Positions 10,599 through 58,160 of a stretch of 64,000 nucleotides of DNA are shown piece by piece. The notes beneath the pieces were generated by a model. The model had not been told where the DNA came from and did not search any database. It was given only the letters and a program-made list of their open reading frames with translations. The stretch comes from a virus. Made by a program: the position numbers and the translations under genes. The first letter of the stretch is position 1, and every line of letters begins with the position of its first letter. The DNA lies in IMG/VR virus record IMGVR_UViG_3300020166_000747; one strand, written 5' to 3'.

Positions 10599-10600
10599 AT

Positions 10601-13241: not shown

Positions 13242-14812
13242 CTCATAAACACTTTTTCTGGCATACTATTATATGCGTTATTTAATTCTGATACTTGCAT
13301 TCCTCGCGTAGGAGACCCGTCCCAATCTGCACTATGAACACGCATACGCGCATTAATCTCTGACAGGTCATTCATGAATTTAGAATAAACCTCTCTGCGT
13401 TCTTCATATGATAGAACCCAAGTTGTATAACGTGTAGTAATGTAGTTACTACTCCATAATACATCATCAAAGTTATCATCTGGTTCTTCGATTATATTCA
13501 ATAAAGAACTCCAATCTCTTATGAGATTAGACTGTGTATATGTAGTTTCATTATGTCTTACACGCTCAAAGAATTCGTACCATTCTTCCATGCTATCAAA
13601 AATACGTAGGATACTTGCTTCATATGCATCTTTCGCACGTTCTCTTTCACTTGCCCAATCTTCTGATTCATAGTCAAAGTCTTCGTAAATAGAGATTAGC
13701 CCTATATCTTTATTATAATAGTTTTCTTTCAAAAAGTCAAGATACATATTGAAGTTTCTTGGATCCCATTCTTCATTTACCCACTTACGTACATTAAGTG
13801 CATTCTGTGAGATATCAAAGTATTTAACCTTTACATCGTCAATACTTGTATCGGCATGCCAATTTCTCATGAATGCGAATGTTTTGAAACCTGCTGCAAC
13901 TGAATATAAATTTCGCAGTGGCTTCTTTGATGGTACAAATTTAATATCATCAATACTTTCAGTGTTTAGAATCCACATGGCATGCGGTGACCGTTCTACT
14001 GTAAACTGTTGGTAATCTAGGAAATCTTTCTTTGTGCCATCAAGTGGCGTGTCCCACTTCTTAAAGTTTGCACAATCTTCTCTAAAGAACTTTTTAAATT
14101 CTGCTTGTTCTTCTTTGATTTCTGGATACACATATGTTTTTGTTGCGCGTGCCGATTCATCAAAGTTAGGAACAGACAGTCCCATTTTTAAGCTCTCGTT
14201 AATGAAGTTCCACCCAAAGCCAGTACGTTTGATTTCTTCTTGTGCTGGGCCGGGAGCTAGATACTTAGGTGTATGACTATCATGAAAGTTTTCTGTACTA
14301 CGAATAGCTTGTCTTACTTCTGTCTTTTTAACACTGAAATCGCCAAACAACGGTTCTCCAAGTTCTTTCCATAGCTTATAATTAATAACAAAGCATTGCT
14401 CATGTAACCTAAACCAACGATCCTTATGTTGTTCATCAAGAATATGCCCCATTACTAGAAACTTATTCTGTTGCGCCATTGGTAGATATTCATGATTACA
14501 GTATTCTCTAAAAAGACTATAACCATGCTCAAGCGGTTTCCAAGCATCATATAAAAAATTACCATATGCTTGCACGACAACCATATCAATGTTTGATTCT
14601 TTTTCATCAGTCTTTACAGCTTGTAAAATTTTATCTACTGAATTTTCTTCATAGATTGGATGCTTAAAGAAACTGTAATTGTTTCTTAAAAAATTATAAG
14701 TAATCGCTCTCATATAATTACTGATTTCATCATCACCAATCGTTTTAGATGTGTCTAGTACTGCACATCTAATCTGTGGCATGAAGTTGTAAGAGCGTTG
14801 ATTTTTCTTCAT
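13220..14812 (-). CDS. Hypothetical two-domain protein (glycosyltransferase-like N terminus, Rossmann/methyltransferase-like C terminus)
   Basis: 530-aa ORF coupled to neighbours; GHILD..LHEQCFVIN and YSVAAGFK..YFDISQNAL motifs. Confidence 0.45.
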   Translation of the reverse strand: MKKNQRSYNFMPQIRCAVLDTSKTIGDDEISNYMRAITYNFLRNNYSFFKHPIYEENSVDKILQAVKTDEKESNIDMVVVQAYGNFLYDAWKPLEHGYSLFREYCNHEYLPMAQQNKFLVMGHILDEQHKDRWFRLHEQCFVINYKLWKELGEPLFGDFSVKKTEVRQAIRSTENFHDSHTPKYLAPGPAQEEIKRTGFGWNFINESLKMGLSVPNFDESARATKTYVYPEIKEEQAEFKKFFREDCANFKKWDTPLDGTKKDFLDYQQFTVERSPHAMWILNTESIDDIKFVPSKKPLRNLYSVAAGFKTFAFMRNWHADTSIDDVKVKYFDISQNALNVRKWVNEEWDPRNFNMYLDFLKENYYNKDIGLISIYEDFDYESEDWASERERAKDAYEASILRIFDSMEEWYEFFERVRHNETTYTQSNLIRDWSSLLNIIEEPDDNFDDVLWSSNYITTRYTTWVLSYEERREVYSKFMNDLSEINARMRVHSADWDGSPTRGMQVSELNNAYNSMPEKVFMRWRNQRT

Positions 14813-15609
14813 TGTGTCACTTTATTCCAACTGTTTAGTATTAAATCTTCAAATTCTTTTCCGCCATACTGTCCATGAACAATCATATGTACACGAACTT
14901 CATCTGTGTCATTCATCACAGCATGTTTGTGTCCTACATTCATCTTAAACATTTTGCCTGGCTTCCACGGAACATACGCATTGTCATCAATCATTTTAAA
15001 GTAACAATGCTCTGGGTTGTTCAACGATATATTTAGCGGTCCTAATTTGTCGTGTTCGTAATCAGTATGCGGAGTGATATAACCGCCTGGTTCTAGATAC
15101 ATGAAACGTACTCGATCAAACGCATTATATCCGGGGATAGATTTAATCATCTCTACTGTTGTTGGGCATTTATCTGCAATCTCTGTCCAGCCATATGCTT
15201 TACGTGCTTCATATTCGTTTTCATATGTAAACCCGGCTGCAATTACATCTTTACTATCCCAATGTTGTGATATGTGCTTGTGTAACCCATGTAGAGTCAG
15301 GGAGCGCCAACCACGATGCCCATAATCGTTTGGATCATTTTCATCATAGTCATTTGAACGATGCTGAATTGCCTCATCATAGACTTCCATCGCCTCATCA
15401 TAGCATTTCTTCCAATCAAACTCTGGGACATCTAATTCAAGCCAAGGTATACTAGACTCATGTGTTACCCACTTTGATTTTCTAAAACGTGCAGTTGGTG
15501 GGAACATAGGCTCATTCATCATAGCATCTACAAACGAACCTGGCATTGTATCAAAGCTATAACTATTTCTATCTTTGAAATGTTCTTCTATTGTTTTTGG
15601 ATAATCCAT
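14809..15609 (-). CDS. Aspartyl/asparaginyl beta-hydroxylase family 2OG-Fe(II) oxygenase
   Basis: GWRSLTLHG, RVRFMYLEPGGYITPHTD, HAVMN, RVHMIVHG; start reset to TAATG overlap at 15609. Confidence 0.85.
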   Translation of the reverse strand: MDYPKTIEEHFKDRNSYSFDTMPGSFVDAMMNEPMFPPTARFRKSKWVTHESSIPWLELDVPEFDWKKCYDEAMEVYDEAIQHRSNDYDENDPNDYGHRGWRSLTLHGLHKHISQHWDSKDVIAAGFTYENEYEARKAYGWTEIADKCPTTVEMIKSIPGYNAFDRVRFMYLEPGGYITPHTDYEHDKLGPLNISLNNPEHCYFKMIDDNAYVPWKPGKMFKMNVGHKHAVMNDTDEVRVHMIVHGQYGGKEFEDLILNSWNKVTQ

Positions 15610-16271
15610 TATTCTAATCTCCCAAATGCCCATTTACGTTCTTCGCACCACCAACATTCACCACAATGCCCAAGTCCGGGGTCTTCTATTTTTTCAAAAT
15701 AATCACTTGTAGGATCATATTCGCAACTACGTGTAATACTATATAAATCTTCTAGTAGATTTTCTTCATTATACATTTTTGCAATTGATCTTTTATCTAC
15801 GTTTGTCCATGGTGTATATGCAACGCCATTGACGATAAACGGCTTAATTACTCCAGGATTACGCTTTGTCTCTGTAATCTTTAATTTAAAATTATCTGAT
15901 ATATTAGTCGGCGGGTTCTCTGTTATGCCAGTGTATAGCATTTTTATAACGCCATTATCTATATAAGGTCTCAGCTTTGGAAATAGTGTCTCAGAACTCT
16001 GTACTTCACAGTATGAAATATGATGCTCTATATTACTGTTGCCTGTTAATTGAATACAACGTTCAACTACTTTAGTAGCGACCTCTACGTTATGTCTGCT
16101 ACGTTGATTATTACCAGTAGAGAATATATAAATCTTATCTTCGCAATGCTTCATTAGGTTATACAAAAGTATAGAGCTATCTGCTCCTCCGCTACAGCTT
16201 ACGCCTACCGGTCCTTCATATATATCTAAATTCACACCAGATACATCGATAGATTTAATTACTCTAGTCAA
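15609..16271 (-). CDS. QueC-like PP-loop ATPase
   Basis: SGGADS PP-loop; TRSC...HCGECWWCEER Zn site. Confidence 0.78.
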   Translation of the reverse strand: MTRVIKSIDVSGVNLDIYEGPVGVSCSGGADSSILLYNLMKHCEDKIYIFSTGNNQRSRHNVEVATKVVERCIQLTGNSNIEHHISYCEVQSSETLFPKLRPYIDNGVIKMLYTGITENPPTNISDNFKLKITETKRNPGVIKPFIVNGVAYTPWTNVDKRSIAKMYNEENLLEDLYSITRSCEYDPTSDYFEKIEDPGLGHCGECWWCEERKWAFGRLE

Positions 16272-17820
16272 TATCTAACTCCTGCTGATTGACGTGGAAC
16301 CCACTATCTTCTAATTCTTTTAATAGTCTGTCATCGAACTCGCCGTCCCAATCATCACCAGCTTCTGGTGTCCAATCTAGTAATGGTGCCATCTCTGGGA
16401 ACACATCTCTAAAGTTTGTATCTCTAATAGCATCCATCTTTTCAATATACTCAATAAATTCTGGCATACGCTCACGTGACCAGTCGCCACTATTCATAAA
16501 TGATATCATACCTTTAAGTCTTCGCACACCATATGCGGCATGTAACCACTCATCTTTGCTCGTCTGTGTCTCTGTTACGCCATCACATTTTTCCCAGTTG
16601 TCTTCAAGCCACTCAATAAAGGTATCAAATTTAGCTTCACACATTTGCTTGAACCAGTTAGGAAGAACTTTAACATTCAAATGTGGTGGGTGATAAACAA
16701 AATGATAGTTAATCATACCTGCACCCAGTGGCCACAGATTGATTTTCTTAAAGTTTTGCTCAATTTTCCACTTGACAAAATCAGGTAAGTAGTATATGTT
16801 TAGTGCTTGTACGGCACACGCTACTGTTACTTCTACATTAGGACCCGTATTGTCTAGTACATGAAACATGTCTACTGTATGTTGCCATGTTGATGGGAAA
16901 CGAATATAATCGTTCATCTCACTAATCGAGTCAACTGAGTAATGAAAACGTACACGCTTGAACAGTTTCCACAAGTCGAACAAACGCTGTGGCATCTCTA
17001 AACCATTGGAGTTATAGCGTAGTTCAATCTGCGGAGCATAACCTCTACGAACAACTTCTTCAAGTAGAGTGTAATGTTCTTCGATGATAGTCGCTTCGCC
17101 ACCAGCAAAATACAATTGCTTCATGTGTGGGATTTGTTCATATAACTGTTCCCAAAACGCTTCGTTCTTTTTATGCCAGTTGTAACTTGCACCATCAATC
17201 TGACCTTTGTTACCCCATTGCATTGTTTCTTTCAGTGATTCATTCTCAATAGTCGGATGCAGTTTAAGCCAATCTTTAACCCACATTGAACTATCATGTG
17301 GCGAACACATAATACATTTCAAGTTACATTTACTGCCAAGACGTAAATCTAAGTATCTGATCTTCGGAGGGATTTCGCCTTCGTCAGATGTCTCATCGAT
17401 GATTTGCTCCATATCTACTCTACGTGACCAGTACTCAGTTTCCCAAAAACGCTTAGACATGTGACCAGCATCTTCTTCATTATAACATTTAATACATGAT
17501 GGTGGTTTCTTATTATTAAGCATCTGCATACGCACATTTTTCATGTAATCGTTGTTCCAACTAGACATTAAGTCTGTGTGATTCAAGTTAGCAGGTTTAC
17601 CATCGGCATTTTTTAAAACACCAACTTCGCCACCGTGTTCTTTGTCGTTAGTCGCGCCAACCGAACTCGCATTCGCTGTACAACAAACACGCATATGTCC
17701 ATTTGGGCGAGTAGACAAATGAACCCATGGCAATAAGCAAAACGTATCGCTAGGTGCATGTGGTACTCGTTTACGAAACTCTGCTAAATTCTTATTAAGT
17801 TCTTCTGATTTGTCAGACAT
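16264..17820 (-). CDS. N-terminal twitch-domain radical SAM protein
   Basis: FCLLPW..VCC..CIKC then CNLKCIMC, AGGEA, YNSNG. Confidence 0.93.
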   Translation of the reverse strand: MSDKSEELNKNLAEFRKRVPHAPSDTFCLLPWVHLSTRPNGHMRVCCTANASSVGATNDKEHGGEVGVLKNADGKPANLNHTDLMSSWNNDYMKNVRMQMLNNKKPPSCIKCYNEEDAGHMSKRFWETEYWSRRVDMEQIIDETSDEGEIPPKIRYLDLRLGSKCNLKCIMCSPHDSSMWVKDWLKLHPTIENESLKETMQWGNKGQIDGASYNWHKKNEAFWEQLYEQIPHMKQLYFAGGEATIIEEHYTLLEEVVRRGYAPQIELRYNSNGLEMPQRLFDLWKLFKRVRFHYSVDSISEMNDYIRFPSTWQHTVDMFHVLDNTGPNVEVTVACAVQALNIYYLPDFVKWKIEQNFKKINLWPLGAGMINYHFVYHPPHLNVKVLPNWFKQMCEAKFDTFIEWLEDNWEKCDGVTETQTSKDEWLHAAYGVRRLKGMISFMNSGDWSRERMPEFIEYIEKMDAIRDTNFRDVFPEMAPLLDWTPEAGDDWDGEFDDRLLKELEDSGFHVNQQELDID

Positions 17821-17849
17821 GTTAACTCCAATTTTAATTATATACGTAT

Positions 17850-18911
17850 TTATTCAACTCTATACTTAGTTGCCTCAACATCAGCAATACAGCTACACCA
17901 ATCGTATTCACAGATTCTACCAGTTACTGGAAATTCTATGTTATCTGGATCGTTCATCATTCCGTGTTTCAAATCCGAAAAACAACTGCTACCAGAAGTT
18001 ACAACGCCGCGTTCATCAACTTTTAATGTTTCAACCCCTATATTACACATCCAGCCTTTCCAACTATTTCTGCCCGCGGCCATTGTATCATTTGATTGAG
18101 TGAACTCTATTTTTCCAGTATACGTATTAACAAATCGCATTAGTTTTCCATATGCTACCCGGCTTTGTTTTCTTTTATTCAACTCATGTTCAAAATTATC
18201 ACTATTTTTTAAATCGACATTAAAAAATTTAGGCTCACCTGCATATTTCTTAATTTCTTCTAAAAAGTCTGCACTATAATCAAATGTTTTATCATCGACA
18301 ATCGTTACTTGTAAACTTTTTGGGATAATACTACTACATTTAGCGTTTTCATAATAATATTTTGCTGCTTCTAAGCAATGATCCTCCAATGGCGGATACA
18401 TACATACCTGTACGCTAGTGACTACTCCCGCATCGTATAATATATTAAGTACATCGGTACAGTGAACATAATCTGCATTTTCGGGATGCCAACTAATAAT
18501 AACTTCATCAAATAAGTTAGCATTGCGTTTCCACCAATTCAAAGTACGAGATCCATTGGTCAATACACGCACAACACAATCTGGATCATATTCTTTGACT
18601 TTATTGAAAAATTTAGAGAAGTCTTTCCAGACCGTAGGTTCACCACCTAGTAAGTTCCATACAATCTTTTGTTTTCCAATTGAACGGTAATGGTCAGTAG
18701 TGCGTTTCACAAAATTAAATGCTATATCAACCTCTGGCCAAGCAAAGGTACCACCATACGACATTGGATGACAATAAGTACACTTATAATTACACGTGTT
18801 ACCTAAGGTCCAATCCACTATTACATAATCGTTTCCCATAATAGATTCATATCTATTATATTCTGAATTTAATTGGTCATTAGATTTGCTGATAAACTTA
18901 ATCTCTTGCAT
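17850..18911 (-). CDS. Radical SAM protein with C-terminal Cys cluster (paralog of 9423-10598)
   Basis: WTLGNTCNYKCTYC, LGGEPT, LTNG, WKGWMCNIG..C..C..CSC; start reset to 18911. Confidence 0.92.
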   Translation of the reverse strand: MQEIKFISKSNDQLNSEYNRYESIMGNDYVIVDWTLGNTCNYKCTYCHPMSYGGTFAWPEVDIAFNFVKRTTDHYRSIGKQKIVWNLLGGEPTVWKDFSKFFNKVKEYDPDCVVRVLTNGSRTLNWWKRNANLFDEVIISWHPENADYVHCTDVLNILYDAGVVTSVQVCMYPPLEDHCLEAAKYYYENAKCSSIIPKSLQVTIVDDKTFDYSADFLEEIKKYAGEPKFFNVDLKNSDNFEHELNKRKQSRVAYGKLMRFVNTYTGKIEFTQSNDTMAAGRNSWKGWMCNIGVETLKVDERGVVTSGSSCFSDLKHGMMNDPDNIEFPVTGRICEYDWCSCIADVEATKYRVE

Positions 18912-19999
18912 TATTGAAACTGTGCCTTGAATGCATCGAACTCTTTGCCACATGTTTTAGAACATACCATTGGTTTGCCAGCATGAGTATTTGGTTTACC
19001 CCAACTATCAACTAAGTTTTTAGTGAAGTAATCATTTTCAAGTACAGCCTTGATGCCATGCTTTCCGGCATCAAATGCATCTTTGCCACCACTACCTTGT
19101 ATTAGTTCCCATACTTGATTTTGTCCTGGCTTTTGCCACCACTTATACATGTTGCCTGCAACCCAACAACATGGGAGTACAAGACCTTCAGCACTTAGAT
19201 ACATGTTCTTTTCTTTTGCAACTTTACAGCTAATTTGTACATTGTCAAAGTATTGTTCTAGTGATCCGTGTTTCTCTTTTAGTTCTTCGATCTTGTCGAG
19301 TGCTTTATTTTGGTACTTAACTTCTTTTGGCTTTGCAAGTAATTGTTGCTTTTCGCCCTTGCGATTAACAGCTTGGTGCTTTTCTTTGCCTGCAATTTGC
19401 ATAGTAGAAAAGAAGCGACCAGTCTTCTTTGGCATAAACTTTCTAAACCCAACTTTTTCAGCAAGCGCCCGTGCTTCTTCAACCTGATGCTCGTTGTGTT
19501 CAAAGATAAGATAATCCCATTCTGCTTTACCGCCTGCTTCAATGAATGCTAGTGCATTCTCCCAAGCGATATCCCAATTAACACCTTGTCTGTATAGATG
19601 ATTTGTATCACCAAGTCCATCAAACGAGAACTTTAGATATGACCAGTTACCTAGAGTCTTAGCAAGTTCTCTCCACCAGTCTGGCTTCTTTGCACCAGCG
19701 TTTGTATTCATGCCTAATGTAAGTTCTTTCTTACATGAACGAAAATATTGAAATACTTCTAGCGTATCTTTAGCTACGATAGGATCACCAAAATTTCCAC
19801 ATAGATAAATTCTATCAAGTTGTTTGACAAACTCTGGCGGCATAATACGCTGTACATCTTCTAATGACAGTTCATGCATTCCCAAGTTTGGGTTGTCAGC
19901 ACCACCGTTCTGATTTCGATCACACATAGGACATGTCGCCTGACACTTCTCTGTAATTTCTAAATGTACAACCCTAATATCTTCATAGCTGTATAGCAT
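18911..19999 (-). CDS. Radical SAM/SPASM-twitch protein (GNFGD subtype)
   Basis: CQATCPMC, LCGNFGDP, FSFDG, PCC, CSKTC. Confidence 0.92.
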   Translation of the reverse strand: MLYSYEDIRVVHLEITEKCQATCPMCDRNQNGGADNPNLGMHELSLEDVQRIMPPEFVKQLDRIYLCGNFGDPIVAKDTLEVFQYFRSCKKELTLGMNTNAGAKKPDWWRELAKTLGNWSYLKFSFDGLGDTNHLYRQGVNWDIAWENALAFIEAGGKAEWDYLIFEHNEHQVEEARALAEKVGFRKFMPKKTGRFFSTMQIAGKEKHQAVNRKGEKQQLLAKPKEVKYQNKALDKIEELKEKHGSLEQYFDNVQISCKVAKEKNMYLSAEGLVLPCCWVAGNMYKWWQKPGQNQVWELIQGSGGKDAFDAGKHGIKAVLENDYFTKNLVDSWGKPNTHAGKPMVCSKTCGKEFDAFKAQFQ

Positions 20000-21197
20000 T
20001 GTATTCCTCTTTTATAAAATCCCAAACTTCTGGGATATAATCTTTAATATGTTGATTTCTGGACTTGTCAACAATCTTGGTACGGTGAGCCAAATCAGTA
20101 ATAGGAAATTCCCTATCATCGTAGTATAACCGTTCTAATACTGGTATTACTTTTTTCTTCATATGCGTCCTGTTCAACTCGCCTTTATCTATATCATCAA
20201 GTAAACGAATTAATAACTGTATGCGTTTATCTCTAATCTTTTTTGGTATCGATAAACAACTTAATGTTTCGGGGGTAATTAGTAATTCTGGTCTTGTATA
20301 GACACCTATCTCGCTACTCCATTTAAGCATTTCATGTAAATTGAATAGATTGTATGCTTGTAAAGTATAACTTATTTCTCCATAAGATGCAAGAGAATGA
20401 TACGTTCTTATGTTCTTATTTATTGAATTAAATTTTACGGGGTGCCTGATATACTCAACTGTTTTACTAGTACCGTCTATACTGTAATTAAACGATATCT
20501 CACTGAACTTAGAAATCTTGTCAATAAAACGCTTGTTACCATTAGTACAGTTCGTAGTAAAATGAATAGGTACATCTAACATATCACGTTCAATAAGAAT
20601 ATCTAAGAACTTATCTACTTCTGGCATAATTGTAGGTTCACCACCAAGAAACTTGACTCTTCTACCTTTATCAGCATTTTCTAGAAGAAACTCGATATTA
20701 TGTTCTCTCTGTAAAACATTACTCTCTCTAATGTTACCTCTACCGAACACAGGTTCCAATGTCGTGTCTTTTTTTACTTCTTTTTGTATTGTTGAACTTG
20801 CTACAGGACCACACATTCTACAACCGAGATTACATAAGTTTCCGGGACGAATATCTAAATCAATAGGAGAACCATATTGGTTTCCAGTTTTAAGATTGGG
20901 AATAATGCCCAACGTCTCATACGAATTAGCAAATCTATTTCGGTCACTTACACCACCATTGTCTTCTAAATCAAAACATTTACTACACATAGATGGACGT
21001 TTATCATCTAAGAAATCTTGTCTAATACCAGTTAAGTATTCATTAGTCCAACGTTTTTTTAAATCTAGTTCAGTCCAGTCTTTTACTACGTTATCCATTT
21101 CATCAGTTGACATACAACATACACGTTCGCCTTCATTGCTATGAACATACATATGAATAAAAGGAGCATAGCAAAAGTTTTTAGGTAAATCTGTCAT
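19983..21197 (-). CDS. N-terminal twitch-domain radical SAM protein
   Basis: FCYAPF..VCC..CSKC then CNLGCRMC, LGGEPT, TTN, SIDG. Confidence 0.92.
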   Translation of the reverse strand: MTDLPKNFCYAPFIHMYVHSNEGERVCCMSTDEMDNVVKDWTELDLKKRWTNEYLTGIRQDFLDDKRPSMCSKCFDLEDNGGVSDRNRFANSYETLGIIPNLKTGNQYGSPIDLDIRPGNLCNLGCRMCGPVASSTIQKEVKKDTTLEPVFGRGNIRESNVLQREHNIEFLLENADKGRRVKFLGGEPTIMPEVDKFLDILIERDMLDVPIHFTTNCTNGNKRFIDKISKFSEISFNYSIDGTSKTVEYIRHPVKFNSINKNIRTYHSLASYGEISYTLQAYNLFNLHEMLKWSSEIGVYTRPELLITPETLSCLSIPKKIRDKRIQLLIRLLDDIDKGELNRTHMKKKVIPVLERLYYDDREFPITDLAHRTKIVDKSRNQHIKDYIPEVWDFIKEEYNAIQL

Positions 21198-22604
21198 TTA
21201 TTTTCTTCCAATAACCATATATCTGTCATACTTTTCTAAATTAAGTGTACCTTTGAAAATGACTTCTGACAAGTTAAGTTTATCGGACCATGCATCCTCA
21301 TGTCCGATAGTATTCACTACTGTATCATCATCATGTTCTACAAAGTTGTTGTTCTGCATAATAACAAGTGTTCCTTTTGGAATGCTGCCGAACCATTCAT
21401 CAAAATCTTCAATGTGTTCACAACTAGTATTGATAACGCAGGTTGGACCTTCAATATCAAGTGTAGATTTAGTCTTCTCAAATTCTGTTGCATCGCTATA
21501 CTTGTAATGATTAACAGGCAATGTTTGTGCCTCATATTTTAGTTTACGGACATCACGCACGAAACTCTTAAATCTCATGTTATCCATGATGTACTCTTTA
21601 TTAAGAGTGTCAGCTGGATTATCCGTACTAGGGTCAATATCAAAACTGTAGATGTTTTTAGCATCGATACGTTCAAACATTAATGCACTTAATACGCCAT
21701 ACCACCCAGCGCATACATATATGGTGTCACCTAAATCAATCTCAAGTGCGGTCACCATGTCAATCAACCACTTCTTAGAGCGCAGTTGTCCACGCGAAAA
21801 CGCATCTGTTAGCGCATCGCCTTCAAAACGATTAATCATCTTTTTCATATTCTGTGGGATGATGTATCTGCTTCCAGTAATAAAGTCAACAGTATCAGCC
21901 ATCTTTGTTTTCATGAGCGTGTTTGATTTAAGGAGTCCAACTTCTTCACATTCTGGATCAATAGCTTGTAGAACTTTAAATAGTAAGAATAAGTCTGGAT
22001 CAGTTTCTACTGCAACAATGTTCTTCAATGCGTCAAGTATCTCAACTGTTGGGTCTGGCATTTCCATAACTACTCTGAATAGTAATTCAGTTTGTAGCAA
22101 CACAAAGCGATTAGTACCACATGCATTTTTTAACGCACCAAGTACTTCACTTTCACCCAATGCACGTTCAATAACATTGAATAGAACAAAGATATTATCA
22201 CGTGAGAACTCACCGTCACCACATGTAATGTTCTTTAAATTGTCAATAAAGTCAGTTTCATCAGGATACAATCCATGTAGAACTCTGAAAACAAGATAAA
22301 GTTTTTGTCTATCTGGTGTATCTACTGCCATAAAATTACGCAATGCATCAAGTGCATCTTCATCTTGTGAAATTGCATTGATTACTTTAAATAGAACGAA
22401 TACGTTGTCATCTTCTGTACGTTCATATACAAGGTTCATAAACGCTCTTACAGTCTCACTATGCTTGCGTCCTAGCATAAACTGTGCAAGTGTAAATATA
22501 CTAGAAAGTTCTTCTGTGTTTACGACACGCTCTAGTTCTTGTACAAGTGGATACTTCTCGCCGTATAGCAGTGATAGTCTATCTGCAATTTGATATGGTT
22601 TCAT
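21198..22604 (-). CDS. Helical-repeat plus class I SAM-dependent methyltransferase-like protein
   Basis: About six LFxV...DALxN repeats, then DAFSRGQLRSKKWL, CAGWYG, SFDIDP, INTSCEH. Confidence 0.6.
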   Translation of the reverse strand: MKPYQIADRLSLLYGEKYPLVQELERVVNTEELSSIFTLAQFMLGRKHSETVRAFMNLVYERTEDDNVFVLFKVINAISQDEDALDALRNFMAVDTPDRQKLYLVFRVLHGLYPDETDFIDNLKNITCGDGEFSRDNIFVLFNVIERALGESEVLGALKNACGTNRFVLLQTELLFRVVMEMPDPTVEILDALKNIVAVETDPDLFLLFKVLQAIDPECEEVGLLKSNTLMKTKMADTVDFITGSRYIIPQNMKKMINRFEGDALTDAFSRGQLRSKKWLIDMVTALEIDLGDTIYVCAGWYGVLSALMFERIDAKNIYSFDIDPSTDNPADTLNKEYIMDNMRFKSFVRDVRKLKYEAQTLPVNHYKYSDATEFEKTKSTLDIEGPTCVINTSCEHIEDFDEWFGSIPKGTLVIMQNNNFVEHDDDTVVNTIGHEDAWSDKLNLSEVIFKGTLNLEKYDRYMVIGRK

Positions 22605-23536
22605 TATTTGTATCCTATTTTCATGTAATATTGTTTATCACCGTATGTGATAACACCAGTGTATAGTTCAAAACTCATTGGAAATTGCTTGTTAAAGTTT
22701 TGTGAACTTGCAAACGGTTTAGGTACATCACCAGTTTCACCGACTAGTACAAGTCTGCGCATGTCTGGAATCATCTTATACCAATCTTTATAGTTCTTCA
22801 AATAACTAATATTAGTATTAATAAGAGTTCCAGGAATTTCTGAGAATGGATTACTTAGCTCACCGTTCTGTAATTGTGTGATAAACGTATGTTCATCATA
22901 TCCGATATTGAACAAGTCTTGTGTCGTTGCTTTGAAGCGCCAGTCTGCAAGTAGTTCTTTACTCATCATTTCATCTGCTAAGAATTGACATACACCATTG
23001 ATGTCAAATGAGCGGATATTCTCGAATCTAAGTCTAGTGTCAAATAGCATCGCTGGAAGGATTCCCATGCCGCCGCCAAGAACATAGATTGCACCAAGAT
23101 ACTTTTCACCGAATGCATGTTGCATCTGTTGTGTAATCCAACTATATACTTTAGCATTCTCTTTGTTAACGAAAGATGAAATGTCAACGTTTGGATACGA
23201 GTAAATGATTTCTTTTAATCTGTCTGTTAGCTTGTCTTCAATTGGCGGAGTAATATGTGTCAAGAAGTCCATTGCTTGGCGATAGTTACCTAGTTGTTGT
23301 GCAACGTTCTCTTTTGAGTATGTAACTGCCATATCTTGATAATCGTAATCAAGTTTCGCTAGTGGCTTTTCACGTCTACGACTAACACGCTTGTAGTTGA
23401 TTGTTTCAGTAATCTCTGGTTCTTCGTCCAATTCTTCCTGTTCAATCAAGTCTGTTACGCCAACCTCATCGTATAACTCATCATTCTTTTTAATGTTTGC
23501 AGCTCTGCGGTTTCTACGTTCACGTATATTACTCAT
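22604..23536 (-). CDS. Methyltransferase-like paralog of the 21198-22604 C-terminal domain
   Basis: YVLGGGMGIL, IRSFDING, RFKA, LINTN, YYMKIGYK align with the adjacent protein. Confidence 0.55.
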   Translation of the reverse strand: MSNIRERRNRRAANIKKNDELYDEVGVTDLIEQEELDEEPEITETINYKRVSRRREKPLAKLDYDYQDMAVTYSKENVAQQLGNYRQAMDFLTHITPPIEDKLTDRLKEIIYSYPNVDISSFVNKENAKVYSWITQQMQHAFGEKYLGAIYVLGGGMGILPAMLFDTRLRFENIRSFDINGVCQFLADEMMSKELLADWRFKATTQDLFNIGYDEHTFITQLQNGELSNPFSEIPGTLINTNISYLKNYKDWYKMIPDMRRLVLVGETGDVPKPFASSQNFNKQFPMSFELYTGVITYGDKQYYMKIGYK

Positions 23537-26500
23537 CGTTCTTTTCCTTAAACTTTTCTTCTAGCCATTCAAAGTCGTTAATCTTTCCTAGCATTTCATC
23601 ATTGCCTGCATATTCTGTTCCCCATGCACGTCCTGCTCTAGCACCTGCAATTGCATACGTACCGAACTCACGGTCTTCACCTTTAGTACACCATGCTTCT
23701 AATCTTTCATCGTCTTCGTCTTGTTTGTTACGATGAATAATGCTAGAACTCAACTTAGTACATTCGCGGAAAGCAGACTTCCAAGTATTGAATGGGTCTG
23801 TATTAAATGCCGTGTAGTTAGCTGGTGTTGGCATCGGCTTAAACTTCTCAGAGATAGATGTTGTAAAGTCAATGCGCCAGTCTTTTGCATCACGTAGCAA
23901 CTGTGTTGGGAATAGTTTTAGTCCGCCATAACCATAAATCAAATCATTCACTGGGTTCTTAGACTTCCAAGTGTGTACTGTGTCTTCGTCCCATACGCTT
24001 GGGAAATATTCAAAGTTGAATTCTTCAAGCAATAGAGCATCAGCATCAATCACATAGAACATGCGAGTATCAGCTAAGTTTGCTGCCGCTTGGTGTGCAT
24101 TAAAGATACCTTTAACCCCATGTACTCTCTTTGCATGTGGCACACGTTCTAATAGTTTAGCATAGTTTCTATCAGCGAACTTCTCCTGATAACTCAACAT
24201 GATAACATCATATGGAATGTCACGTGTAACCGCTGTTGCCTTCTTGATTGGTTTCTTATTCTTAAAAGTCATCTTACGTAACTTGTCAGCATCAGGTTTT
24301 AATTCTTTAATTGCACTTGCTGGAATAAGTTTTAGTCCGCCGAATTGATGCACAAACCCAGTGTATGGGTTTTCTTTAGGCCACAGATGAAAGTGTGACT
24401 TATGATGTCGATCAACATAGTGTGTTCTGTCAAAATCTTCTAGCATTTCTACATCATTGTCTAGTGCCCAGAAATAACCGGTCTTTGTCATCCTAGCGGC
24501 TTTTTGATATGCCTCTGCCAAGTCTGTTGCATCAATCACATCAATGTTCTTGTGTTCTGTGAACTTTGCAGTGTTTTCAGAATACATACCTTCATCAAAA
24601 TAGAATGCTGGGTGACCTACAACACGTGATGCAGTTTTATCTACACGAATAATATTTTTAAATCTATCAAATGAGAAGTCTTCTTTGCTCGGATTGAATT
24701 GCTCAAGATGTGGTCTATGTACAAGATATACACCAGCTTCCCCGTCACCCTCACTTTTAAACGCAAATACGTTTTCGATAGAGTGAATATCTGGATAGTA
24801 ATCAAAATCCCAATCTTCTAGTAGGTCAACCGCAGTATCAACTACCCAATAAAACACGTGCTTCTTGGATTGTGTGTATGCTTTGTATGGGTCGCGGGTG
24901 TAATACTTTTTGATAGTGTGTCTATCTGGAATACGTGCCACGATATCATCATAATATTTTACATTCTCTGAATGATATGCTTTATTTGATAGAGCAAGAC
25001 CGCCATGTCCTAGTCTTTCACCTTTGCGTGACTCAAAAGAGAAAATATGCGTAGGACCAGTGTCATACAAGTCTGGATAGAAATCATCAATCGTAGTATC
25101 CGTTAATTGTAAATCTGGGTTAACCATCCAGAATGTATCTTGTGTAGCAAGTTTTACTGCCTCTTCAACTGTACGTGCTTCGACACGTTCAATTGTTTGT
25201 AGTTTACCTGCAACTATATCAGTATCTTTTTGTTGTTCAGTATCGCCGCCATTATGCGGAACAAGGCGTACTCCGTTACGAATAGCGGTGTCTCCATTAA
25301 GAACATTAAAGTTATGCGTATAGTGTCTATCATATGATAATGGCACATAGTCTGGTTGTTCAAAGTCTACGTGGTTCGCAACTAACCAAACCATTTCTGT
25401 ATCAGCTTTTGATGCAACCGACGTATCTAACAAATCATCTACACGCATAACATCAAATGGTATGTCAGTAAGTTCTTTAGTTTCTACATAAGATGCTCTA
25501 CGTCTAAAGTTAAATTTTGTGTATTGCTTATCATCGAATTCTGCATAGTCTTTTCTGAATAATCCAACCCCATAGAATTCACGTGCATCACCTGCATGAT
25601 TTGTTCTTTGCCATACGACAATCTGTTTGCGACCTTCTTCAGTTAATGAAAAATCAAATTCGTAATCAAAGTTGAAGTCTCCAACTTTAGTATCGGCAGT
25701 TATGATGTAATAATAATTGTACTTAGAATTCTTACTTGCATACTCATGCAATTCTATCCCAGTCTTGTGATTGCAACGTTCTATACGTGGAAAGCGTTTT
25801 TCAAGTTCTTTAAAGTTTGCATCACCGAAGCCACGATCCCAATAGAATATATTATATTCTGGTACTACAGAAACTTCACGTTCATGGAACTTTACACTGT
25901 ATTCATCATATTCCTTAGTTAATAGAACTACGCCCTTTTGAAAAATATGTGCAGATGCTTGTTCATATAAATCAGGATAGAAATCAAAATTAGTAAGTTC
26001 AACTGCTGGATCAACAATAAGTGACGGGTATGATTTTACTTGTTCTATTCCTCCTTTGAGTGTTGATGACAGAATAACATCAAACTCTTTCACATTGCCC
26101 AACACCTTATCAATATCTTTTTGTTTTTCTTCATCATAGTTACATGGAACAAGTTTGATATGATTACGTGCTACTGCACCTGTATGTGTTACAATGTTAA
26201 AATTATGAATATACTTTTTATCATACGATGGTGGAACAAAGTCTGGTGTGAAGTTTTCTACACAATCATCTACTACCCAAGCCATTTCATAACCACATTT
26301 GTTAACATCATCTATAGATTTAACAGTCGGATACATGATTGGTTTCACATCATTCGTTTGTGCATAGATTGCTCTACGCCTGAAATCAAAGTTATGATAC
26401 TTCTTATCTGCAAATAAGTCATAGTCTTTTCTGAACAGGCCCACACCTTTATATTCTAATGGCATATCATTAAAGTCTGTTTTCTGCCACACCACAATCT

Positions 26501-28049
26501 GTTGTCTGCCTTCTTCTGTCATAGAAAAATCAAACTCGTAATTGAAGTCAAAATTACTCACATCAACATCATCTGTAATGAAATAGTAATAATTGAATTT
26601 ACTTTTCTCTTGTGCTTGTTTGTGTGCTTCTACAATGTCACCTGATAGCACAGTATAATCTGTATATTGTTTTACACTCTCTGTATTATTTCCAGAGTCA
26701 TATACAAACACATCATATTTTGGGATATGGGAAACCACTGTCTCATGGAACTTTACATTATATTCGTCATACTCACTATTAATAAACACAACGCCTTTAT
26801 TGAACACATGTGCGCTTGCTAAGTCATACAAGTCAGGATAAAAGTCAAAACTATCTACTAGTTCTACTGCTGGATCAACAATTAAAGTAGGATAAGTTTC
26901 AGCTTTTGATATCCCACCTTTAAGTGTAGATGCATTAACAACATTTGTTTCTTTTAAAGTACCTACTACTTGATCAATATCTTTTTGTAACTCAATGTCT
27001 ACATTTTTGGGGACAAGTCTAACACCATTTCGTACTACATTACCGTTCGATGTTTTTACGTTAAAGTTATGAATGACTTCTCTATCATATGAAAACGGAT
27101 AGTATTCGTCAGAAAAATCTTCTACATCATCATGTACAAGCCAATACATATCAGTATCAACATCATGATTTAAATTATGAAGGTCTTTAGTACGAATTAC
27201 AGGAAACTCTAAGTCACGTGCAATAGGGTCACGTTCATATACTGCTTTGCGTCTAAAGTTAAAGATAGCATACTCACGTTCTTTAAACATGAGACCATCT
27301 TTTGGGAACAATCCAATACCGTGATACTCTCTAACTAAATTTGTCTTGGGGTTTTCTTTTTGCCATACAACAACTTTTTGATTTTCTTTATCTAGTCCAA
27401 ATGCAAACGAGTAATCAAAATTGAATGTGTCAAAAATCTCTGTATTTGGATGTATTAGATAATAGAAATCAGTACGTGTTTCTTTGCGACACATTTCATG
27501 TACATCAATATTAGTTTCGCCACGAACTACATTTATACCAGGGAACCGTTCTTTTAGCTTTTCAAAGTTTTCTTTCCCATAGTCTTTTTCCCAATAAAAG
27601 ATATCATATGTTTCAGTAGTCGGCTTGTATTCTACATTGTCAGTAGTATGCTCTTTAAAGTCACCAGTCAAATAATATGCATCTTGGATATACTGAACTT
27701 CTTTGTTCTTCACATCACTAGTTTTAAATAGCTTAACACCAACAACTGAACGGAATACATTACGCTCCTCTGCATTCCAAACATGTACAACGTCTTCATC
27801 CCAATTATCGGTCTGAAAGTCGAAATCGAAATCATCATCGACACATACATCTGGATCAATAATCCAGAAGTGTTTTGTGTTTGTGATAGCAGCAATTTTA
27901 CTAATCGCTTTATCAATCTTTGGATCGCTCCAGTCTTCTAGATTGATTTTAACCATGCGAAAGTTAGGATATTTTTTACATATCCTATCTAAACGTTCAT
28001 TAGTTTCTCTATCTGATTTGTAAGTTAGATAAAAACCGTCGTATGCCAT
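23529..28049 (-). CDS. 1506-aa multi-repeat glycosyltransferase-like protein
   Basis: Repeated F(W/Y)xID/F.FD(Y/F)/H.W/G.LF units; C-terminal AKRVHGVKG..AH..FYVIDAD domain similar to 57183-58160. Confidence 0.7.
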   Translation of the reverse strand: MAYDGFYLTYKSDRETNERLDRICKKYPNFRMVKINLEDWSDPKIDKAISKIAAITNTKHFWIIDPDVCVDDDFDFDFQTDNWDEDVVHVWNAEERNVFRSVVGVKLFKTSDVKNKEVQYIQDAYYLTGDFKEHTTDNVEYKPTTETYDIFYWEKDYGKENFEKLKERFPGINVVRGETNIDVHEMCRKETRTDFYYLIHPNTEIFDTFNFDYSFAFGLDKENQKVVVWQKENPKTNLVREYHGIGLFPKDGLMFKEREYAIFNFRRKAVYERDPIARDLEFPVIRTKDLHNLNHDVDTDMYWLVHDDVEDFSDEYYPFSYDREVIHNFNVKTSNGNVVRNGVRLVPKNVDIELQKDIDQVVGTLKETNVVNASTLKGGISKAETYPTLIVDPAVELVDSFDFYPDLYDLASAHVFNKGVVFINSEYDEYNVKFHETVVSHIPKYDVFVYDSGNNTESVKQYTDYTVLSGDIVEAHKQAQEKSKFNYYYFITDDVDVSNFDFNYEFDFSMTEEGRQQIVVWQKTDFNDMPLEYKGVGLFRKDYDLFADKKYHNFDFRRRAIYAQTNDVKPIMYPTVKSIDDVNKCGYEMAWVVDDCVENFTPDFVPPSYDKKYIHNFNIVTHTGAVARNHIKLVPCNYDEEKQKDIDKVLGNVKEFDVILSSTLKGGIEQVKSYPSLIVDPAVELTNFDFYPDLYEQASAHIFQKGVVLLTKEYDEYSVKFHEREVSVVPEYNIFYWDRGFGDANFKELEKRFPRIERCNHKTGIELHEYASKNSKYNYYYIITADTKVGDFNFDYEFDFSLTEEGRKQIVVWQRTNHAGDAREFYGVGLFRKDYAEFDDKQYTKFNFRRRASYVETKELTDIPFDVMRVDDLLDTSVASKADTEMVWLVANHVDFEQPDYVPLSYDRHYTHNFNVLNGDTAIRNGVRLVPHNGGDTEQQKDTDIVAGKLQTIERVEARTVEEAVKLATQDTFWMVNPDLQLTDTTIDDFYPDLYDTGPTHIFSFESRKGERLGHGGLALSNKAYHSENVKYYDDIVARIPDRHTIKKYYTRDPYKAYTQSKKHVFYWVVDTAVDLLEDWDFDYYPDIHSIENVFAFKSEGDGEAGVYLVHRPHLEQFNPSKEDFSFDRFKNIIRVDKTASRVVGHPAFYFDEGMYSENTAKFTEHKNIDVIDATDLAEAYQKAARMTKTGYFWALDNDVEMLEDFDRTHYVDRHHKSHFHLWPKENPYTGFVHQFGGLKLIPASAIKELKPDADKLRKMTFKNKKPIKKATAVTRDIPYDVIMLSYQEKFADRNYAKLLERVPHAKRVHGVKGIFNAHQAAANLADTRMFYVIDADALLLEEFNFEYFPSVWDEDTVHTWKSKNPVNDLIYGYGGLKLFPTQLLRDAKDWRIDFTTSISEKFKPMPTPANYTAFNTDPFNTWKSAFRECTKLSSSIIHRNKQDEDDERLEAWCTKGEDREFGTYAIAGARAGRAWGTEYAGNDEMLGKINDFEWLEEKFKEKNDE
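24924..27608 (-). repeat. Three tandem intragenic super-repeats of ~290-310 aa
   Basis: Units start at 27608 (YDIFYW), 26717 (YDVFVY), 25856 (YNIFYW); each carries VVWQ, G(I/V)GLF, F(N/D)FRR, HNFN, (K/R)LVP, FYPDLY. Confidence 0.88.
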
Positions 28050-28087
28050 ACTTACCCTATAGTTGTAATTTCTTACATTATAACAGA

Positions 28088-29620
28088 TTATTCGTCTGTT
28101 GTAAAGACTTTAATTCCGTAATGATTAGAAAAATCTTCTGCATCTTTCAAGTCATTGACAATTGGTTGTCCTTTAATGTTCAATGATGTATTTACTAAGA
28201 TTGGACAACCAGTCTTTTCTTTAAACTTTGTTAACAACTCGTATAGACCTGGATGTGTTTCTTTGTTTACTGTCTGCACACGTGATGTTCCGTCTTTGTG
28301 TATAATAGCTGGAAACTTTTCTGGATACTTACATGTTGCAACGAACTGCATATAAGGAGATTGTGTGATGTTCTTTGGCATATCGAAGTAATCATGCACA
28401 TCCTCTTCTAAAATCATAGGAGCAAATGGTCTAAACTTCTGTCTGCGTTTGATTTCATTCATACGATCCTTAATAGTATCTCCACGAGGATCTGCTGTGA
28501 GTGTACGATTACCCAATGCTCTTGGACCAAACTCTGCTCGTCCATTTGCAATGCCAATGATATCTCCATTAAGCAATGCCGCTAATGACTTCTCTACGGG
28601 ATACGTACCTTCGATATTGTGACCTAGATATGCAGTAGTCCAGTTAATTCTATTCTTAAAGAATTTTTGTGAAGCACCAATACAACTACCAGCATCACCC
28701 GGGTTTGGCATAATCCATACATTATCATAGTTGTGCGTGATGTTACTATTAGCACTACAGTTAAGTGCGCAACCTCCCATGATAACTAGATTTTTACTCT
28801 TACATACTTTTCTAGCATGTGAGATTATATTATCAAGTATCATTTCATAAACTTTCTGTGTCGCTGCCGCTAAATCAAATAAGTCTTGTTCGATCGTTAG
28901 TTCTGGTAGTAACCACTTACAACCCCTATGTAAATTTTTTCTAAAAGATACAATCGTAAAAAATTCACCGCTGTGGTCATTTAGTTTAATACCAATCTCA
29001 TCTAATAAATGAGATACTAAAGTTTTACCTTGATATTCTCTATTTGGATTACCATATGCTGCCATGCCCATGAGAATGTATTCGTCTTCCTGTGGCTTTA
29101 GTCCTAAACGCTGTGTCATTGCACTATAGAATAGCCCAACTGAATTAGGATAAGACTGTTCGTACTCTCTTAATAGCGTATCATTCACACCATTCCAAAT
29201 AGTAAGAGTTTCAAATTCTCCCATACTATCGATGACAACAACTGCGGCATCATCAAATCCACTAGTGAAATAGCCACTAGCAGCATGTGTGTAATGATGC
29301 GATTGATATTTAATCTTAATACCATTAAGTTCAGGGAAGTTCTTCAAATACCGTTTTGGCATTTCTTCTTTGTCAAATGCTAAACTATATTGTCTAGCAG
29401 TGAATTGTCTAAACTTCTTTAGTAATGGTCTTTCATACCACGCAATAAAATCTGGCTTACCATACGATAGTGCCTCTTGAATGATTTCATCATTCAGAAG
29501 CGGGTCATTTTTAATCTTAGAATAGCGTTCACTATGACTAGCAAATAGAATTTCGCCGTCTTTAATAACACTAACTGCGGCATCATGGTTAAGTGCGCCA
29601 GATATACCTAGTACAATCAT
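28088..29620 (-). CDS. Carbamoyltransferase (NodU/CmcH/TobZ family)
   Basis: HDAA..ERYSKIK, HHYTHA, GGCALN, PGDAG, EFGPRALGNR, FRPFAP, NTSLN. Confidence 0.95.
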   Translation of the reverse strand: MIVLGISGALNHDAAVSVIKDGEILFASHSERYSKIKNDPLLNDEIIQEALSYGKPDFIAWYERPLLKKFRQFTARQYSLAFDKEEMPKRYLKNFPELNGIKIKYQSHHYTHAASGYFTSGFDDAAVVVIDSMGEFETLTIWNGVNDTLLREYEQSYPNSVGLFYSAMTQRLGLKPQEDEYILMGMAAYGNPNREYQGKTLVSHLLDEIGIKLNDHSGEFFTIVSFRKNLHRGCKWLLPELTIEQDLFDLAAATQKVYEMILDNIISHARKVCKSKNLVIMGGCALNCSANSNITHNYDNVWIMPNPGDAGSCIGASQKFFKNRINWTTAYLGHNIEGTYPVEKSLAALLNGDIIGIANGRAEFGPRALGNRTLTADPRGDTIKDRMNEIKRRQKFRPFAPMILEEDVHDYFDMPKNITQSPYMQFVATCKYPEKFPAIIHKDGTSRVQTVNKETHPGLYELLTKFKEKTGCPILVNTSLNIKGQPIVNDLKDAEDFSNHYGIKVFTTDE

Positions 29621-50228: not shown

Positions 50229-50230
50229 AA

Positions 50231-57182: not shown

Positions 57183-58160
57183 TTAATGTCCGCTCCAACC
57201 AGTGGTTTTTTCTGTTGCTAATGGATTCTTTACTCTTGGGGGATTTGAGTATACTCGCTTGAAAAATGCTGCTACTTCTGGAGTTGGATCACATAGTTCC
57301 ATACCAATCTTATCAACTAAGATATCACCGATACGCAAACATTCATCAAACAACTTATCATAGTCCCATTCTACTTTTGTGTTTTCGCATTTCATTTCAC
57401 CGCCTTTAAATGGTGGGAAGACTTCGTTTTCGAAATACTCTTTGAACCAATCATAGCTAGAAATGTTTTCTAGTACGAAATCAGGGTTAAGATTGATATC
57501 ATAGCAACCAAGACGTGCGCCGAATAATGCCCAGATGCCGTTCTCTACATCAGAACCAATGTTACACCATGTAATTAAACGCTCATAGTTCTTAGGCCAG
57601 ATACGTTTCTTAAAGTCTTCTACAGGAACTTTCTTACCTTCATCAAGTGACATTTTAGCACCTTCACGATAACCAGCACGGAATGCTTGGAACGGTGATC
57701 CTGCATTATATACGAGTGAGTACACATTGTTCATCTGAATATAGTTCAAGTCCCAACAGAAGTCAACCTTTTTTGTTTCATCTTCTGCATTTTCATGTGT
57801 CTTCATATCAAGTACAAGTTGTACTGGCCAGCATTTAATTCCGCCGTTGCCATAAACAAGTCCGTTCACAACGTTCTTCGCTGACCATGAGATAACCGAG
57901 TTAGCTAAGTCAGTGTCTTCTGGGAACGTAAGTTCAATATCAAAGAACTTTTCATCTACGATGTTATCACCGTCGATAGTAATAAATCTGTCTGTATCAC
58001 TTTGTCTCGCACATTCCTTGTGCGCATTATCAAAACCTTTAACGCCATCTACACGTTTTGCAAATGGAAACTTCTGTAGCAAGTCTGCCCAGTGTTTCTC
58101 TTTATTTGGTTCATCGTAACTTAGATAAAAGATATCTAGTTCACCAATTTCTAGTTTCAT
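57183..58160 (-). CDS. GT-A-like glycosyltransferase (single-unit homolog of the 1506-aa protein's C terminus)
   Basis: LSYDEP, AKRVDGVKGFDNAH, ITIDGD (DxD), YGNGGIK, AFRAGYREGAKM. Confidence 0.7.
   Translation of the reverse strand: MKLEIGELDIFYLSYDEPNKEKHWADLLQKFPFAKRVDGVKGFDNAHKECARQSDTDRFITIDGDNIVDEKFFDIELTFPEDTDLANSVISWSAKNVVNGLVYGNGGIKCWPVQLVLDMKTHENAEDETKKVDFCWDLNYIQMNNVYSLVYNAGSPFQAFRAGYREGAKMSLDEGKKVPVEDFKKRIWPKNYERLITWCNIGSDVENGIWALFGARLGCYDINLNPDFVLENISSYDWFKEYFENEVFPPFKGGEMKCENTKVEWDYDKLFDECLRIGDILVDKIGMELCDPTPEVAAFFKRVYSNPPRVKNPLATEKTTGWSGH

Follow-up and report, generated by a model that had tools for sequence, protein, structure and literature searches.

The window analyzed here is a 64,000-nucleotide stretch of viral DNA (IMG/VR record IMGVR_UViG_3300020166_000747), in which a gene of a giant marine phage, hereafter the array gene, encodes a protein of 1506 residues in one uninterrupted open reading frame (ORF). 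The protein is composed of 13 homologous units followed by a single helical tail. The last unit, C, carries the tail and has kept nearly all residues that are conserved in its family; the twelve units ahead of it are tail-less and mostly substituted at the same positions, and nine of them form three-unit cassettes whose number differs between related proteins. We give roughly an even chance to the explanation that the protein has one active transferase domain at its C terminus and, ahead of it, a non-catalytic arm built from truncated but maintained copies of that domain, with a length that is set cassette by cassette.

The repeats were mapped by self-BLASTP, in which 150-residue chunks were compared with the remainder of the protein. 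Three tandem super-repeats (cassettes 1–3 in Table 1) were recovered, with periods of 297 and 287 residues (891 and 861 nt) and 40%–58% identity in the chunks (best E = 7e-57). As wholes, the super-repeats are 41%–44% identical at the protein and 55%–57% identical at the DNA level. The ends of the protein match each other and the interior weakly (residues 1–148 with 1278–1412, E = 5e-11; residues 45–114 with 1177–1248, E = 4e-7). Tandem Repeats Finder gave two trivial short rows and nothing relevant to the array, and a search of the whole protein against Pfam, PHROGs, and NCBIfam produced no useful match.

The protein was parsed into 13 units: N, three sets of a-b-c, X, Y, and C. Alignments for nine unit types were built from 68 close relatives, and the resulting profiles were compared with one another using hhalign. 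Unit N matched each other unit type with 83.5%–99.9% probability, the value for the N-terminal half of C being 99.9%. N, a, b, c_last, X, and Y all matched the N-terminal half of C (85.6%–99.9%), and c_int was linked to the others via N, c_last, and X. The helical tail, used as an internal control, reached at most 5.6% against the unit types. The short types b, c, and X align with the second half of the longer ones: the alignment begins at the helix that precedes the DxD position and runs through to the G-G-x-L strand. DxD-like motifs are present as IIDPD at residue 63, ALDND at 1195, and VIDAD at 1333, and are substituted elsewhere (LIHPN, IITAD, LVANH, and, twice, IVDPA). A preliminary description of this DNA, made from the sequence alone, had proposed three tandem repeats with these periods, each with three copies of a small domain in a total of about 13 units, and DxD-like motifs that are clearest in the terminal units and mostly substituted inside. 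All of this was recovered, and each motif it quoted was found in its place.

To what extent the units are complete was judged from 32 front-half positions that are conserved in at least 85% of 154 C domains of the wider family. Unit C retains 30 of these, Y 14, N 13, 2a 12, 1a and 3a 11 each, and the remaining units 3–8. When Y and C were aligned with 59 short family members, invariant polar residues were found both in the front half (E1289, H1319, D1337, K1378, and D1394) and in the tail (R1428, E1429, K1432, and W1453). The DAD motif of unit C is present in all 68 close relatives. The substituted motifs are kept as well: NPD in 61 of 61 c_last units and DPA in 38 of 39 c_int units. Because the substituted states are fixed among the relatives, the degenerate units are maintained rather than decaying. 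The same partition is seen in 148 representatives of the wider family, where DxD is retained in 155 of 158 tailed domains versus 56 of 319 tail-less units. Exactly one tail is present in 135 of these proteins and two in 13. In 131, no more than 40 residues separate the end of the last tail from the C terminus, and 95 have one or more tail-less units, the maximum being 15. Judged by their sequences, the tail-less units have lost putative catalytic or metal-binding residues. Tandem arrangements of two complete tailed domains are seen in 13 of the 148 representatives (e.g., P0125, P0129, and P0133–P0135).

Two observations weigh against a single active site. The acidic pair of unit N is present in 68 of 68 close relatives (DPD in 57, DPE in 6, DAD in 5), and the DND of unit Y in 51 of 68. 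In the window protein itself, DxD is found in units C, N, and Y and not in the other ten. With these residues kept in N and Y, metal or nucleotide might be bound at several sites, but both units are without a tail. The preliminary description had envisaged one or few catalytic domains plus an expandable array of pseudo-GT (pseudo-glycosyltransferase) domains, which might act as a glycan-binding track, a length ruler, or a scaffold for tailoring enzymes. One complete, catalytic-looking domain is indeed present at the C terminus, after an array of degenerate copies; N and Y, with their acidic motifs, may or may not add to the number of catalytic domains.

Comparison of repeat counts bore out the earlier suggestion that the array is expandable. 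Among the 68 close relatives, 33 proteins (894–944 aa) have one cassette, corresponding to seven units, 14 (1215–1240 aa) have two, 11 (1503–1522 aa) have three, and one, P0003 (1805 aa), has four. Six proteins have a six-unit form, two have extra a-b pairs in place of cassettes, and one has a truncated plan. A tree of sub-unit a separated first from non-first copies with a support of 0.999, the sole exception being the truncated P0021. Last and non-last copies of sub-unit c were separated perfectly (support 1.0), and the tree of sub-unit b was mixed. The trees thus anchor the first a and the last c, and the plan can therefore be written as N-a-b-[c'-a'-b]n-c-X-Y-C (n = 0 to 3). The in-register exchanges have their breakpoints in or near b.

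When sub-units were clustered at 72% identity to give each cassette a barcode, the barcodes proved to be shuffled between proteins. There are at least two types of middle cassette, and P0003 has both. The two-cassette protein P0012 corresponds to the window protein minus cassette 2, the middle one, and last cassettes are mosaics. In three-cassette orthologues, terminal units are 81%–87% identical and interior ones 64%–68%, with abrupt switches of partner, in line with cassette shuffling. Alternative plans, with repeated a-b pairs lacking c or with six units in the order N-a-b-b-Y-C, were also seen (P0023, 1372 aa; P0027, 1142 aa; P0057–P0063, ~855 aa). Expansion of the array is therefore not confined to the three-unit cassette.

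We rejected an assembly artefact as the source of the repeats, in agreement with the preliminary description. Long exact DNA repeats are absent from the gene. Its best-matching pair of copies is 71% identical over 131 nt, a divergence too great to mislead an assembler. Near-identical sequence was present in 16 sequencing runs from about eight studies, each containing at least half of the sampled words. Contigs were compared over four runs, with the small-share runs X17–X20 excluded. One X5 contig covers positions 22000–28854 in one piece and is colinear with the gene, and an X6 contig, from another study, covers 24907–26901 with no differences and spans two super-repeat borders. No contig in the four runs joined across an entire cassette. 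The same 13-unit plan was found in ten further proteins from other assemblies. Two irregular joints were noted, either of which may stem from relatives or paralogues: one that skips 324 letters (23582 to 23907, with a side of 21 letters) in all four runs, and one in a single low-depth X6 contig, from 24669 to 28745 with 8 foreign letters between. Contigs from RNA libraries contain the array gene too, which is no proof of transcription.

Unit C together with its tail belongs to a large family. When residues 1278–1506 were searched against 1.84 billion representatives, a limit of E = 1e-3 gave at least 1304 clusters (50% identity), with lengths of 225–2164 residues, and 966 of these also passed a limit of E = 1e-10; among the 150 matches listed, E values ranged from 2.6e-148 to 5.5e-56. 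With its conserved N-half positions and the R-E-x-x-K and W of the tail, unit C is a full member. It is not represented by any model in Pfam, NCBIfam, or PHROGs, and a PHROGs search with 60 family members returned no families. Stand-alone C-domain proteins of 225–240 aa (e.g., P0173 and P0176, and RsoM2USA_348 and _350) are 44%–56% identical to unit C plus tail. Most family members have 0–5 tail-less units, whereas the lineage of the window protein has 6–15 in ordered cassettes. Elsewhere in the window, a 325-aa ORF forms a stand-alone paralogue of unit C and its tail and matches residues 1281–1501 (33% identity, E = 3e-30). This match to the C terminus had been noted in the preliminary description, where the ORF was called a glycosyltransferase (GT); since it has no Pfam or NCBIfam match of its own, that name is an inference.

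The family occurs in phages, Bdellovibrionota, and Rhodobacterales. The 78 cellular loci comprise many Bdellovibrionota, including complete chromosomes, isolates of Rhodobacterales, and Dyadobacter, Pedobacter, and Streptomyces. A radical S-adenosylmethionine (radical-SAM) gene of the type found in the window lies within 8 kb in 26 of the 78; a TENA-like gene is found in 12 loci, and a homologue of the window's 468-aa gene in 13. A module of C-domain, TENA/PqqC-like, 468-aa, and radical-SAM genes, the latter with an N-terminal SPASM domain, recurs in chromosomes and metagenome-assembled genomes of Bdellovibrionota (L012–L062, e.g., L035, L051, and L057). Among 50,697 phage records, the sole match was to Ralstonia phage RsoM2USA, and megablast of 12 kb of the window against phage records found none. 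RsoM2USA is a cultured jumbo phage with a compact block (MG752970, 209659–224318; L119) that unites relatives of both window clusters. It contains two GT-like genes, a small gene, a 317-aa C-domain paralogue, a radical-SAM gene, a 233-aa one-unit C-domain protein, and a 468-aa-like gene, all annotated as hypothetical. Since this phage offers a minimal one-unit version beside its partners, the chemistry of the C domain is testable.

The front half of unit C is probably of the GT-A type. Like the GT-A-fold proteins of GT family 2 (GT2; PF00535 and PF13641), it has a beta-strand and S-Y-x-E start and a helix, a hydrophobic strand, and DxD in one register; the likeness stops soon after DxD, however, and a helical tail specific to the family makes up the C-terminal half of the unit. 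Weak matches to PF00535 were obtained for 13 of 60 family members (best E = 8.2e-5) and to PF13641 for two, while each of the other 18 families listed was matched by one member. Single units of two multi-unit relatives are just over the curated cut-offs (P0094, 25.3 bits versus 23.3; P0069, 27.1 versus 27). The weak PF00535 matches share a register that places DxD near profile position 85: positions 28–58 of window Y fall on profile positions 65–95, 21–65 of P0254 on 51–94, and 30–104 of P0264 on 57–131. Against an alignment of 22 GT2 sequences from five bacterial genomes, the DxD of unit C and its preceding helix aligned onto their GT2 counterparts with P values of 1.2e-4 to 1.4e-3 and scores of 28–31 (hhalign probability 17%–55%). 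Sixty block-shuffled controls scored 13.8 on average and 24.4 at most, and a radical-SAM alignment scored 12–14. In bacteria, genes for unit C homologues have bona fide GT1 and GT2 genes on either side (Pedobacter and Sulfitobacter), and on a Bdellovibrionales chromosome the C-domain gene lies between GT2 and radical-SAM genes.

A number of results weigh against this kinship. The window Y+C piece matched PF00535 with E = 0.03 and 14.7 bits, below the cut-off of 23.3, and the match covers the helix and DND of unit Y; the whole protein (P0001) matched no GT family. The GT2 likeness is limited to 32–53 columns around DxD, and a reversed GT2 profile scored 20–22. A WcaA-family profile from 103 orthologues gave no signal (P = 0.34–0.53; 0.41 in a first comparison with the C-domain profile), this profile being narrow because its search returned only close orthologues. 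The C-domain profile gave no signal against single E. coli GT2 proteins, and neither did the controls. No PDB chain was matched by phmmer, or by the family profile at E up to 10. PF00535 was absent from four of four related phage records at E up to 0.1 and unmatched in eight of ten stand-alone C-domain proteins at E up to 1. The tail has no likeness to GT2 (P = 0.067) and no known relative. The Atlas has no structure models for the homologues P0173 and P0042. The notion of GT-A-like units in the preliminary description thus finds partial support: units of two relatives are just over the cut-offs, the window protein itself has no significant match, and the profile alignments, though scoring above all 60 shuffles, are short.

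The array gene is flanked by genes that recur with it (Table 1). Nine IMG/VR loci share the order DUF6071, carbamoyltransferase, array gene, TENA/PqqC-like gene, gene for the 468-aa unknown, and radical-SAM genes, and across the loci with this order the array stop codon overlaps the next start. A sigma-70-like promoter motif ahead of the array gene has 11 of 12 hexamer matches and lies partly within the end of the carbamoyltransferase gene; it is conserved in nine of nine related loci despite differing surrounding sequence. The number of cassettes had been expected to go with the number of radical-SAM genes. No such correlation was found, and we rejected it for the loci seen: in these nine, which represent about four lineages, the 10 kb downstream to which the count was limited always contain four radical-SAM genes, whether there are one, two, or three cassettes.

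Table 1. Features of the array gene and its surroundings in the window
Feature	Position	Strand	Remarks
Array gene	23529..28049	-	1506 aa; 13 units and helical tail
Unit N	27609..28049	-	aa 1-147; no tail; DPD
Cassette 1	26718..27608	-	aa 148-444; 1a HPN, 1b HDD, 1c DPA
Cassette 2	25857..26717	-	aa 445-731; 2a TDD, 2b DDC, 2c DPA
Cassette 3	24924..25856	-	aa 732-1042; 3a TAD, 3b ANH, 3c NPD
Unit X	24606..24923	-	aa 1043-1148; short; DTA
Unit Y	24210..24605	-	aa 1149-1280; no tail; DND
Unit C, N-terminal half	23865..24209	-	aa 1281-1395; DAD and YGYGGLKL motif
Unit C, helical tail	23532..23864	-	aa 1396-1506; single occurrence
TENA/PqqC-like gene	22604..23536	-	next gene; start overlaps array stop by 8 nt
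468-aa protein gene	21198..22604	-	no Pfam/NCBIfam match; conserved partner of C-domain gene
Carbamoyltransferase gene	28088..29620	-	conserved upstream neighbour
Stand-alone paralogue of unit C and tail	57183..58160	-	
Sigma-70-like promoter	28077..28105	-	TTTACA-17-TATAAT with TG (extended -10); 28 nt ahead of start codon
Radical-SAM paralogues	9423-21197	-	
Radical-SAM paralogues	49005-57182	-	

In the explanation we prefer, the array protein would be a soluble enzyme whose only functional active site lies in the C-terminal unit. Residues 1281–1506 would make up a nucleotide-sugar-transferase-type domain, composed of a GT2-like front half with DxD and the family-specific helical tail. The twelve preceding units would be duplicated front halves that have lost the tail and most residues of the catalytic signature, each being fixed in its own substituted state. 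The homology of the units, the single tail, the pattern of conservation, the variation in cassette copy number, the synteny, and the promoter motif are observed, whereas the transfer of sugar, the nature of the acceptor, and the function of the arm are inferred. Most likely, the arm would bind an acceptor that is long or repetitive, such as a glycan chain or a protein rich in repeats (e.g., a fibre), or would place the active site at points along this acceptor. Its length would depend on the number of three-unit cassettes, which phage lineages would alter by in-register unequal recombination. The array gene would be read from its own host-type promoter and be translationally coupled to its conserved partners, i.e., the TENA/PqqC-like protein, the 468-aa unknown, and the radical-SAM enzymes. 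It is doubtful, in our estimate, that the array acts as a genetically tunable molecular ruler or processivity track of pseudo-enzyme domains. Each cassette would then contribute a constant length or several binding sites, and phage lineages, by swapping and counting cassettes, would determine how long a modified glycan becomes or how it is spaced. The glycan would in that case be built by the C-terminal domain and the radical-SAM partners on a virion or host-surface target.

Other explanations concern the activity itself. Units N, Y, and C, and perhaps other, non-canonical units, might all be active and jointly build a hetero-oligosaccharide repeat. The conservation of the acidic pair of N and of the DND of Y would fit such a multi-site polymerase, as would the 13 wider-family proteins with two complete domains, but N and Y are devoid of the tail and its invariant residues, match the family at no more than 13 and 14, respectively, of the 32 conserved positions, and belong to a class of units that seldom retains DxD (56 of 319); we think such a polymerase distinctly unlikely. 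The C domain could instead have a different Rossmann-like nucleotide-binding fold and transfer something other than sugar, e.g., a nucleotidyl or phospho-group. Consistent with this, the GT2 similarity is restricted to the helix, strand, and DxD segment, the tail is without known relatives, and one member weakly matches Glyphos_transf (E = 0.092). We hold such a fold to be unlikely, given that, of the families listed for the 60 members, just PF00535 and PF13641 were matched more than once and that the bacterial neighbours are glycosyltransferases.

The arm could also serve purposes other than holding an acceptor. Each pseudo-unit or cassette might recruit a radical-SAM or other tailoring enzyme, so that the protein would be the docking scaffold of an assembly line. 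Indeed, the array gene stands first in a series of radical-SAM genes and shares a few nucleotides with the gene that follows it, and in cellular loci the C-domain gene is accompanied by TENA-like and 468-aa genes (12–13 of 78) and by radical-SAM homologues within 8 kb (26 of 78). Docking is nevertheless quite unlikely in view of the constant four radical-SAM genes in the nine loci, few as their lineages are, and of Bdellovibrionales and RsoM2USA, where the same partners are paired with a single-unit C-domain protein. A last alternative does without enzyme activity: a recycled alpha/beta module would form a structural or binding protein, either virion-associated or binding the host surface, the repeat number of which tunes reach or avidity. 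Cassette-wise variation in length and mosaic exchange recall adhesins and fibres. Moreover, the island in the window fits the hypervariable "host recognition cluster" of pelagimyophages, which is reported to mix fibres, glycosyltransferases, and radical-SAM cassettes (PMC7029224). Such a role is very unlikely: the promoter ahead of the gene is host-type and not late, the gene sits among enzyme genes, DxD and other polar residues of the tailed domain are conserved near-absolutely, and bacterial chromosomes place single-unit homologues among glycosyltransferases.

Multi-domain glycosyltransferases of viruses and bacteria have several transferase-type domains per chain, and these domains are active. 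In O-antigen chain-length control, coiled-coil "ruler" systems are used, in which the length of the protein sets the length of the product; unlike these, the window array would consist of pseudo-enzyme domains. The closest parallel we can offer is B3GLCT, a two-domain GT-A enzyme whose catalytically inactive GT-A domain binds the acceptor, an arrangement reported to be unusual (PMC13597200). As proposed for the window protein, the inactive domain lies N-terminal to the active one, of which it is probably a derived copy, and it serves in substrate recognition. B3GLCT has one extra full-size domain, whereas the window protein has twelve front-half units, and its cassette number varies between lineages. 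By analogy, B3GLCT is our working model for the function of the arm. No paper on the C-domain family or on arrays of pseudo-GT domains was found in the limited literature searched. The array brings together in a single chain twelve apparently inactive units, and up to fifteen in relatives, in ordered cassettes that are gained, dropped, and exchanged in natural phage populations. The C domain, for its part, defines a large family without a database model that is tied, in phages and predatory bacteria alike, to an uncharacterised set of radical-SAM, TENA-like, and 468-aa genes. Should the arm determine how long the product is or how acceptors are spaced, length control without a template would be achieved by a novel design; were the arm a ruler or track, it would represent a new principle of product-length control and a new use of pseudo-enzymes.

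Beyond the shared gene order, the loci differ further downstream. A QueC-like gene is present in five of the nine, and the six loci with two or three cassettes have genes for an Asp/Arg-hydroxylase and a 530-aa unknown. The one-cassette loci L007–L009 have two tandem TENA/PqqC-like paralogues (~8758–10508 in L007) and a different order of radical-SAM genes. In the window itself, the two regions listed at the end of Table 1 encode many radical-SAM paralogues in which a SPASM-type cluster domain is N-terminal to the radical-SAM core.

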